From Bugula neritina (taxonomy: Eukaryota; Animalia; Bryozoa), in NCBI GenBank assembly GCA_964035545.1, contig OZ037769.1:8475929-8539928 (forward strand): a stretch of DNA of 64,000 nucleotides. The letters run 5' to 3'. This document shows, piece after piece, positions 58,322-59,630 of the stretch. How positions within the stretch are numbered: the first letter of the stretch is position 1; each line of letters opens with the position of its first letter. Made by a program: the position numbers and the translations under genes. The notes below the pieces were generated by a model. The model saw nothing but the letters and a program-made list of their open reading frames with translations. It was not told where the DNA came from and did no database searches.

Positions 58322-59630
58322 TTACCCACGTACATCAGTAGACCAAAAGAAAAGACATAACATATATAAAGATACACAATAACAGACAGAGTCATTATAA
58401 CAGCAGGTTACATACAATTGGCCAGCTATAGAGAAAGAATACCGGCTAGTTGTGGTATTGGACAAGGACTCGAGCTTTCGAGCAGTCAAGCATTTGCATG
58501 ATCGTCTTGGATCCCCAAGAAGACGAGGCTTGTAGATCATTCCGGCAGCAGAACCAGAGTCAGTGTTGGGCACGACGATGTTTGGCCTGGCATATACGTA
58601 ACTTTCTTTAATCCGGCCAACCGAGCCTTTTAACTGAAAGAGTCCCGCCGTGGTATTAAGCAGATCCGGTGCTAACTGGGTAAACTCAGCCTGCAGTCGG
58701 AGGAGGCGTTCCTCTACAGTGGCCAGGCGAGCGGGGTCTGGGGACAGTGTCCATCTACGACAAAGAGGGGGACTTGGAGACCGGGTCCGTCTTTTCGTCG
58801 GGGTGGGGGAGACCTCTCCTTCTTCGGGATAGGTAAACTCTTCGGGGGTGTACACAATCTGAGGGCGGTCAGATACCAATGGAGATTGTTGCCTGGCATA
58901 GTCTAGTACGCGCTGGAAACCTGAGGTCAGGACGGCCAACAACATAGCCTTCTTCACTAGGGGTCGTATCAGAGTTAAGAATTCTGGATAGAGTTTGGCA
59001 TCCACCAGGTAATCCTCTCCGGAGAAACAGCCCGTCGCCCGATGTCTGGTGACGGGGTAGGGGTAGACATCATTATATCCACAGGGGCAGAATGTGAGTA
59101 AGAGGTGGGCGTTGACATGTAGCTTCAAGGAGCGGTGAGAGGCGCACTCCTCGTCACAAATCTGGCACCGCGTTCTTCCTTTGGATCCCCAGGCCGTTTC
59201 TATCTGCTCTTCTGTTTCCGGCGACACCCACCGCCAACGGCGGCGCAGTGGCTCGGGCCGGTCACCATTGGCATACTCCTCAGTATGCGGAGCGGGAAGT
59301 GCTCTATCCCGTACCCTGGTTGTAACTGGTCGAGTGTAATCTGAAAAAGTTTCAACAGTGTTAGTATAATACACTGCAGTGTTGTCAGCTTGAACAGCCT
59401 GGCAACTTCTCGTTCAGTTACTTCGTAAAGATTTATGGTAGTGAATAGTCAGATAGAACACGTATTGCAATGAGATTATAAAATCTCTAAGTCAAACTGA
59501 GTTCTTACTACGGTAGTTCACTAGCCTATCTCCAGTTCATTTGACTCAGTGAGTCGGAGCTGAGCAATGCAATCGAGTTTCCATATCAAGATATAGTTAA
59601 CTCACCCCACGATCTGTTGTCGTAAGACAT
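58322..59630 (-). CDS. Spliced ORF3 zinc-finger/coiled-coil accessory gene, copy 2 (exons 59606-59630 and 58322-59340; inferred ancestral stop 58560)
   Basis: Same 25-nt mini-exon, 265-nt intron 59341-59605 with TACTAAC at 59360-59366 and TTTTTCAG acceptor. CQIC-x12-H-x3-H, CPC-x12-H-x4-[11 protein letters not shown], leucine-rich helix. A 1-nt deletion after GRIK extends the ORF. Confidence 0.78.

Follow-up and report, generated by a model that had tools for sequence, protein, structure and literature searches.

A conserved double-zinc protein encoded by Gypsy elements of Bugula neritina occurs as a separate accessory gene and, in relatives, as the C-terminal end of Pol

Introduction

Two related Gypsy elements on a contig of the bryozoan Bugula neritina carry, downstream of the integrase, an ORF (here ORF3) that had been predicted to be the second exon of a spliced accessory gene encoding a zinc-finger protein not related to env. 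What is this protein, how would it be expressed, and does it belong to one family of elements only? As a concept, spliced non-env accessory genes are already known in Gypsy elements (CERV, rotifer ORF3s, and MDG1 sORFs), and among the few accessory regulators of LTR retrotransposons that have been tested, the accessible literature offers CERV as the clear case. This spliced, non-env nuclear regulator of Cer1, a Gypsy/Ty3 element of Caenorhabditis elegans, is required for the export of unspliced RNA and not for transcription (PMC10309623). At 517 aa, CERV combines a candidate C4 finger with domains termed H, M, and G-protein-like, and it is reported to have no homology outside nematodes (PMC10309623). 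LTR elements of bdelloid rotifers encode non-env ORF3s, typically from spliced messages (PMC5408684), and the MDG1 group has the accessory sORF1/sORF2 (PMC11952523). In foamy viruses, Tas is encoded by a spliced 3' accessory gene with an internal promoter, and activates both this promoter and the LTR (PMC13220597).

Results

Gypsy elements in the window

The window, i.e. the whole stretch of 64 kb that was analyzed, contains three minus-strand Gypsy elements. Copies A and B belong to one family (family B), and the third, which spans about 9662-4293, is decayed, with a pol nucleotide identity of 66%. The Pfam domains of pol are ordered PR-RT-RNase H-integrase, as in Ty3/Gypsy, and the closest named RT matches are arachnid, frog, fish, and nematode models that are 44-57% identical. 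Only the 3' part of copy A is present, the element continuing past the window end, and its pol is broken up by stops and frameshifts. Copy B is whole (Table 1). Its paired LTRs (50288-49982 and 42458-42168), which have 6 mismatches per 291 aligned nt, end in TG..CA, the element is flanked by a 4-bp target duplication (ATAT), and a primer-binding site (PBS), which we take to be that of tRNA-Leu, starts at 49980. This combination is also a feature of Ty3/Gypsy. No tRNA genes were found within the window.

The third element has no gag, protease-region sequence starting within about 200 nt of its PBS, and there are two CACGTG boxes (5505 and 5485) in the spacer ahead of its ORF3. The integrase tail of copy B contains a 745-bp AT-rich insertion (44459-45204) that is not in copy A and has a strong donor-like site at 44875. 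Elsewhere, the window holds MITE-like palindromes or inverted repeats (15448-15695, 50974-51394, 1774-3009, and 21812-23842), a minus-strand host exon (3447-3809) encoding a CTHRC1 C-terminal domain above the Pfam cut-off, a plus-strand host exon (30141-30506) encoding an F5/8 type C-like domain, and a dispersed repeat (25615-26456 and 56736-57951; 70-77% identity between copies), one copy of which adjoins the 3' LTR of copy A. At 32170-32726, all three plus-strand frames are open for ~170 codons with a strong GC skew, and this is probably a tandem or low-complexity repeat.

Table 1. Coordinates of the Gypsy features within the window
Feature	Positions	Strand	Basis or remark
Copy A pol (PR, RT, RNase H, integrase, GPY/F-type tail)	59875..64000	-	domain matches
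Copy A spacer from pol stop to mini-exon, 244 nt	59631..59874	-	candidate internal promoter
Copy A candidate mini-exon (ATG, 8 codons, 1 nt)	59606..59630	-	identical in copy B
Copy A predicted intron, 265 nt (GTGAGT donor, CAG acceptor, TACTAAC at 59366-59360)	59341..59605	-	sequence signals
Copy A ORF3 exon 2, homologous frame	58604..59340	-	frameshift near 58,609
Conserved double-Zn domain (W-x-S-x-x-T helix, two fingers, V-D motif, helices)	58886..59230	-	homologs, model
Finger 1 of copy A (C2H2)	59167-59105	-	C-x2-C-x12-H-x3-H
Finger 2 of copy A (C-x-C..H..C)	59089-59027	-	C-x-C-x12-H-x4-C
Arg/Ser/Pro tract	58766..58795	-	subfamily-specific
C-terminal long helix/coiled coil into basic tail	58607..58735	-	model helix 202-244; heptad score
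Copy A 3' LTR	57963..58270	-	sequence comparison
Copy B whole element	42168..50288	-	LTR pair, PBS, target duplication
Copy B alternative first exon (gag ATG, 14 codons, 1 nt, then AAG/GTGAGC)	49906..49948	-	best of 383 GT sites
Copy B mini-exon	43749..43773	-	sequence signals
Copy B predicted intron, 266 nt	43483..43748	-	sequence signals
Copy B ORF3 exon 2	42750..43482	-	broken by 49-nt deletion near 43,030
Third element, decayed ORF3 with own ATG at 5252 and acidic N-terminal part	4552..5252	-	E 8.9e-12 and 1.4e-07 across frameshift

Candidate splicing of ORF3

The gene structure put forward in the original prediction was recovered in both copies: a 25-nt mini-exon, a GTGAGT donor, introns of 265 and 266 nt, a TACTAAC branch motif that ends 19 nt ahead of exon 2, and a matching phase 1 between mini-exon and exon 2. 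The mini-exon is identical in the two copies (25/25 nt). Their lesions differ, as had also been described. Past its frameshift, copy A reads on through non-homologous sequence as far as 58,322, giving a product of 347 aa, while the deletion in copy B shifts the frame and the product ends at 200 aa. The proposed length of ~268 aa is matched by the homolog P0002 (84% identical), whose 259 residues, counted from the matching Tyr to the stop, would make 268 with the 9 of the mini-exon; this figure comes from the homolog. That ORF3 has no usable ATG of its own is correct for family B and incorrect for many sister subfamilies, which have a Met ~20 codons past the acceptor position.

As assessed with an approximate donor scoring matrix, an equally good ATG plus in-phase donor was obtained in 52/2000 shuffled sequences, and the mini-exon donor scores highest among the 274 GT sites that the window contains of copy A and ranks third of 383 in copy B. 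An equally good branch point plus acceptor was obtained in 14/2000 shuffles. Comparison of 99 contig pieces of one sequencing run with positions 59290-59690 listed 27 variant positions, 20 of which are intronic and three of which are in the mini-exon (two synonymous), and none of the 27 falls on the start codon, the donor bases +1 to +6, the branch motif, or the AG. At the loose end of two contigs, the donor +1 base is changed in one copy. Among the contig joints of this run, where contigs speak for presence only, there was no intron-less DNA copy. At the protein level, Ser-Asp/Gly is found at the acceptor position in 16/18 close homologs that reach there (by eye; 14 by script), which is what a conserved TCAG acceptor would give. 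As judged from these signals, splicing of ORF3 in family B is likely.

The first exon is uncertain because copy B has a stronger donor in early gag, at 49905, which is 43 nt past the gag ATG, has the same phase 1, and would join the ORF3 acceptor in frame (this donor is seen in one copy only, the gag start of copy A being beyond the window). There are hence two candidate first exons, the mini-exon or a gag leader as in CERV. Used as the first exon, the mini-exon would require either a promoter within the element or a splice further upstream. The spacer that separates it from pol contains CGGAA motifs in both copies, and no TATA box was found in it. An AG is present one base ahead of the mini-exon ATG in both copies (59631-59660; 43774-43803), which would allow the mini-exon to be internal and not the first exon.

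The strength of three splice signals in the genomic RNA, two phase-1 donors and one acceptor, would suit a CERV/Rev-like RNA factor, a possible but somewhat doubtful function for ORF3. Its product, made from a spliced RNA in which the gag leader or mini-exon is joined to ORF3, would coat unspliced element RNA as an oligomer in the nucleus and lead to its export despite the strong splice signals. CERV itself consists of a gag exon plus a 3' ORF, contains a leucine zipper as well as a Cys finger, and is needed for export (PMC10309623). In addition, the introns of copies A and B differ at 14/265 nt (5.3%), less than synonymous sites do (dS 0.145), as a response element might show. However, the domains given for CERV in the accessible text (helix hairpin, C4 loop, G-protein-like) differ from the architecture of ORF3 described below.

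Selection on ORF3

Comparison of dN/dS between the copies had been proposed as a check. For exon 2 the ratio is 0.28 (227 codons; Sd 23/174, Nd 20/507; Fisher p 8e-5), near the 0.26 of the RT-RNase H part of pol, and the other two frames of exon 2 give 0.80 and 2.92. Since mutations acquired after insertion contribute to it, the value of 0.28 would be an upper bound. ORF3 of family B is selected, yet its frame differs from that of pol. Searches retrieved 80 close homologs at 42-93% identity and, with a profile, 123 representatives. ORF3 is a real accessory gene of an animal Gypsy clade and is under purifying selection. A pattern scan of metagenomes with ORF3 returned 116 pattern matches, none of them related, and a DNA-pattern scan of viral contigs returned 0 matches; the sole DNA-pattern match in metagenome contigs (L001) was rejected as chance.

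Domain architecture of the ORF3 protein

The two fingers have the spacings that had been claimed (Table 1). Across 196 distinct domain sequences, seven Zn ligands are conserved at 95-98% and the eighth at 71%, with the W-x-S-x-x-T helix ahead of the ligands and the V-D motif behind. An AlphaFold2 model on 87 sequences is a single compact domain (pLDDT 94.6, pTM 0.87); in an earlier model of ORF3 the finger region was poor (pLDDT 57.7) and the long C-terminal helix was present. Superposition of residues 31-85 of the model on tandem C2H2 pairs bound to DNA is weak; the best one has Z 3.8 and an rmsd of 3.2 A, with 51 residues aligned over 34-85. In Foldseek searches of PDB and BFVD, the domain model had no match at an E threshold of 0.001, and a search of the ESM Atlas (best 0.88) gave generic C2H2 leads only. 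Profile matches are to the fingers of SALL3, HIC2, and TZAP. ORF3 has no match in Pfam at the curated cut-off; at E up to 0.05, zf-C2H2_4 is matched by 10/51 family members (best 1e-4), and the weak matches to JSRP, Zn_SUZ12, and ATG16 were discarded as effects of sequence composition or of a generic coiled coil.

In finger 1, the residue that the finger code places at +6 of the helix is hydrophobic, and the inter-finger linker, 5 residues long and aromatic, is not of the TGEKP type found in canonical tandem fingers. In the model, the fingers are predicted to be compact, inward-packed, and non-canonical. These non-canonical features and the low structural Z weaken the prediction of sequence-specific DNA reading. 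Inward-packed fingers would suit a counter-defence protein whose Zn domain binds and titrates a host silencing component, with no direct nucleic-acid target, and the bryozoan gene models described below could be its host counterparts or decoys. We consider this function improbable: the domain is consistently basic and has no known partner, and nothing in the data points to a silencing pathway. Indeed, the double-Zn domain is basic in 151/178 sequences, with a median net charge of +5, and the 60 residues upstream are acidic in 63/95. Basic non-canonical fingers would also be appropriate for an RNA factor.

The Arg/Ser/Pro tract singled out in the original prediction is present. It is not conserved (4/80 close and 8/101 distant homologs), carries no weight at the family level, and its rarity argues against an RNA factor. 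The C-terminal features are more general, with a heptad signal by a crude score in the last 65 residues of 44/61 homologs and a basic tail kept in 59/80 close homologs. As had been concluded, the protein is not env-like. It has no TM helix (best 19-residue hydropathy 1.51; 6/80 homologs exceed 1.6), and the slot in which env would encode a fusion glycoprotein with a signal peptide and TM anchor is occupied by the Zn domain. The predicted layout is an acidic stretch, a compact basic two-Zn domain, a linker, and a coiled coil. An acidic part, a basic Zn domain, and a coiled coil with a basic tail are the layout of a dimeric nucleic-acid-binding regulator, and we infer that ORF3 probably encodes such a regulator.

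Distribution of the double-Zn domain

In the third element, the double-Zn domain is found at about 4834-4552, the same slot as in ORF3 of family B. Among the 120 best long RT-RNase H relatives, which were searched only among proteins of 623-2000 aa, a range that favors fusions, 24 have a Pol whose far end carries the domain in the same frame, usually together with the terminal helix. The 104 unnamed relatives are made up of these 24, of 46 with a full integrase-tail length but without the module in that ORF, and of 34 that are short. In a FastTree phylogeny (from which P0322 was left out for its short overlap), fused forms are on many branches, mixed with unfused ones, and family B and the third element are in one subclade (support 0.985), whose sampled long members are unfused. 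Within families, several full-length copies bear the fusion, the domain being present in 46/112 cluster members, and one cluster has six fused members of 1,730 aa. In P0218 and P0221, which are relatives of the third element, the pol-tail motif is retained in the same ORF as the module. The linker between the pol tail and the module is 58-529 residues long and of low complexity. The module is therefore clade-wide and often the C-terminal end of Pol, and the mini-exon is a local arrangement. Of the original notion of a stand-alone spliced gene of one family, the selected non-env ORF holds, and the restriction to a separate gene of one family does not.

The recurrence of fusions on many branches, in several full-length copies per family, and in the same ORF as the pol-tail motif would fit a chromatin- or DNA-reading appendage of the integrase, at the position where chromoviruses have their hallmark C-terminal chromodomain (PMC3605345). 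In family B, the module would have become separate from Pol and would associate with the integration complex again via its coiled coil. We regard such an integration tether as rather unlikely. The low-complexity linker speaks against it, and so do the 46 relatives with a complete-length integrase tail and no module, and the family B ORF3, which is out of frame with pol and still selected. Moreover, the fused share (24/70) is near the one third possible with a random frame, and fusion, instead of being selected, may be read-through that is tolerated. Sisters of fused proteins are found among the 46 unfused proteins and may be broken copies, in which case the fused share would rise. No chromodomain was found among the Pfam matches of the pol tail at E 0.1.

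Fusion is also awkward for an RNA factor, since Pol-fused forms would be translatable only after export, unless they have sub-genomic RNAs of their own. That both copies are broken might point to a chance ORF, a captured dead host fragment, or a degenerate env. This has almost no probability, being ruled out by the dN/dS of exon 2, the conservation of the ligands, the clade-wide position, and the absence of a TM helix.

Of the 20 clusters looked up, 4 include named proteins with the domain, all of them bryozoan gene models, from Watersipora subatra (XP_067940963/4 and XP_067944745) and B. neritina (KAF6040922/3). The domain is present once or twice in these models, some of which also end in a heptad helix. 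Three of the bryozoan models (P0143, P0205, and P0206) share an N-terminal motif of ~46 residues at 35-39% identity, and none of the other proteins retrieved has it. The accessions of the two Bugula models are consecutive, and both models are on one contig of 417 kb. It is possible that P0143, P0205, and P0206 represent a domesticated or donor host family.

Discussion

We favor, at a rough probability of 0.36 and by analogy with foamy virus Tas, the reading that the ORF3 product is a dimeric nuclear DNA- or chromatin-binding self-activator whose RNA is short and spliced, with RNA export and integration tethering close behind. In family B, transcription of this mRNA would start from an internal promoter in the spacer between pol and the mini-exon, or alternatively an mRNA from the LTR would use the early-gag donor, and it would be spliced onto the acceptor at 59340. 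The protein would dimerize, enter the nucleus, and activate or de-silence the LTR in the manner of Tas. In fused relatives, the module would come from a similar sub-genomic RNA or be cut off Pol by the protease of the element. The self-activator is preferred because a DNA or chromatin reader fits both the free and the Pol-fused states as well as the resemblance to C2H2 fingers. It is supported by the dN/dS of 0.28, the conservation of the ligands, the compact model, the acidic/basic layout, and the heptad tail, and further by the identity of the mini-exons, the Ser-Asp/Gly at the acceptor position, the superposition on tandem C2H2 pairs, and the bryozoan gene models with the domain. Several observations argue against it. 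A free transactivator would not need frequent in-frame fusion to Pol, the early-gag donor is the stronger one, the spacer has no TATA box, and the donor +1 base is changed in a loose end. The precedent of CERV, needed for RNA export and not for transcription as described in the accessible text, would likewise count against self-activation.

Comparison with known systems sets ORF3 apart. Tas serves as a working model for the mini-exon arrangement, but foamy viruses, unlike the ORF3 elements, are retroviruses with an env. To our knowledge, there are no Pol-fused forms of Tas. ORF3 differs from CERV, as compared by the description in the accessible sections of the paper only, in its size of ~268 aa, its domain with a C2H2 and a C-x-C..H..C finger, and its frequent fusion to Pol; the early-gag donor, seen in one copy (B), would give a gag-leader splice as in CERV. 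The chromovirus chromodomain (PMC3605345, accessible part) is likewise an extra chromatin-type module at the C terminus of Pol, comparable to the fused relatives. It is, however, another domain, whereas the ORF3 module has a long linker and a coiled coil and exists also as a separate selected gene. Rotifer ORF3s, as far as the available descriptions go, are GDSL esterases, DEDDy exonucleases, and TM or coiled-coil proteins, and the MDG1 genes are small ORFs, unlike the double-Zn ORF3. Indeed, the terms "zinc" and "C2H2" do not occur in the text of the rotifer paper (PMC5408684), nor do "zinc finger" and "C2H2" in that of PMC13524379. The tandem C2H2 proteins SALL, ZNF217, and Kaiso resemble ORF3 in the spacing of finger 1, profile match, and two-finger superposition, but the second site of ORF3 is C-x-C-x12-H-x4-5-C/variable, there is no canonical linker, and extra N- and C-terminal elements are predicted by the model to fold with the fingers.

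No description of the double-Zn ORF3 family or its alternation between fused and free forms was found in the freely accessible literature searched, and one may exist in Repbase, Dfam, GyDB, subscription papers, or supplements. The double-Zn/coiled-coil protein family appears to be new. It is conceivable, and we offer this as a tentative wider picture, that an undescribed module of a large invertebrate Gypsy clade flips repeatedly between integrase tail and free gene, started separately or spliced, and that bryozoan host genes share this module; a guide for integration that reads chromatin would have turned into a stand-alone regulator, an accessory gene budding off Pol. With the bryozoan gene models, one may also ask whether element and host have exchanged the module. 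A conserved, well-folding family that is both fused and free provides a route to asking how retroelements gain genes like Tat, Rev, or Tas, and also lets one ask whether such modules steer integration.
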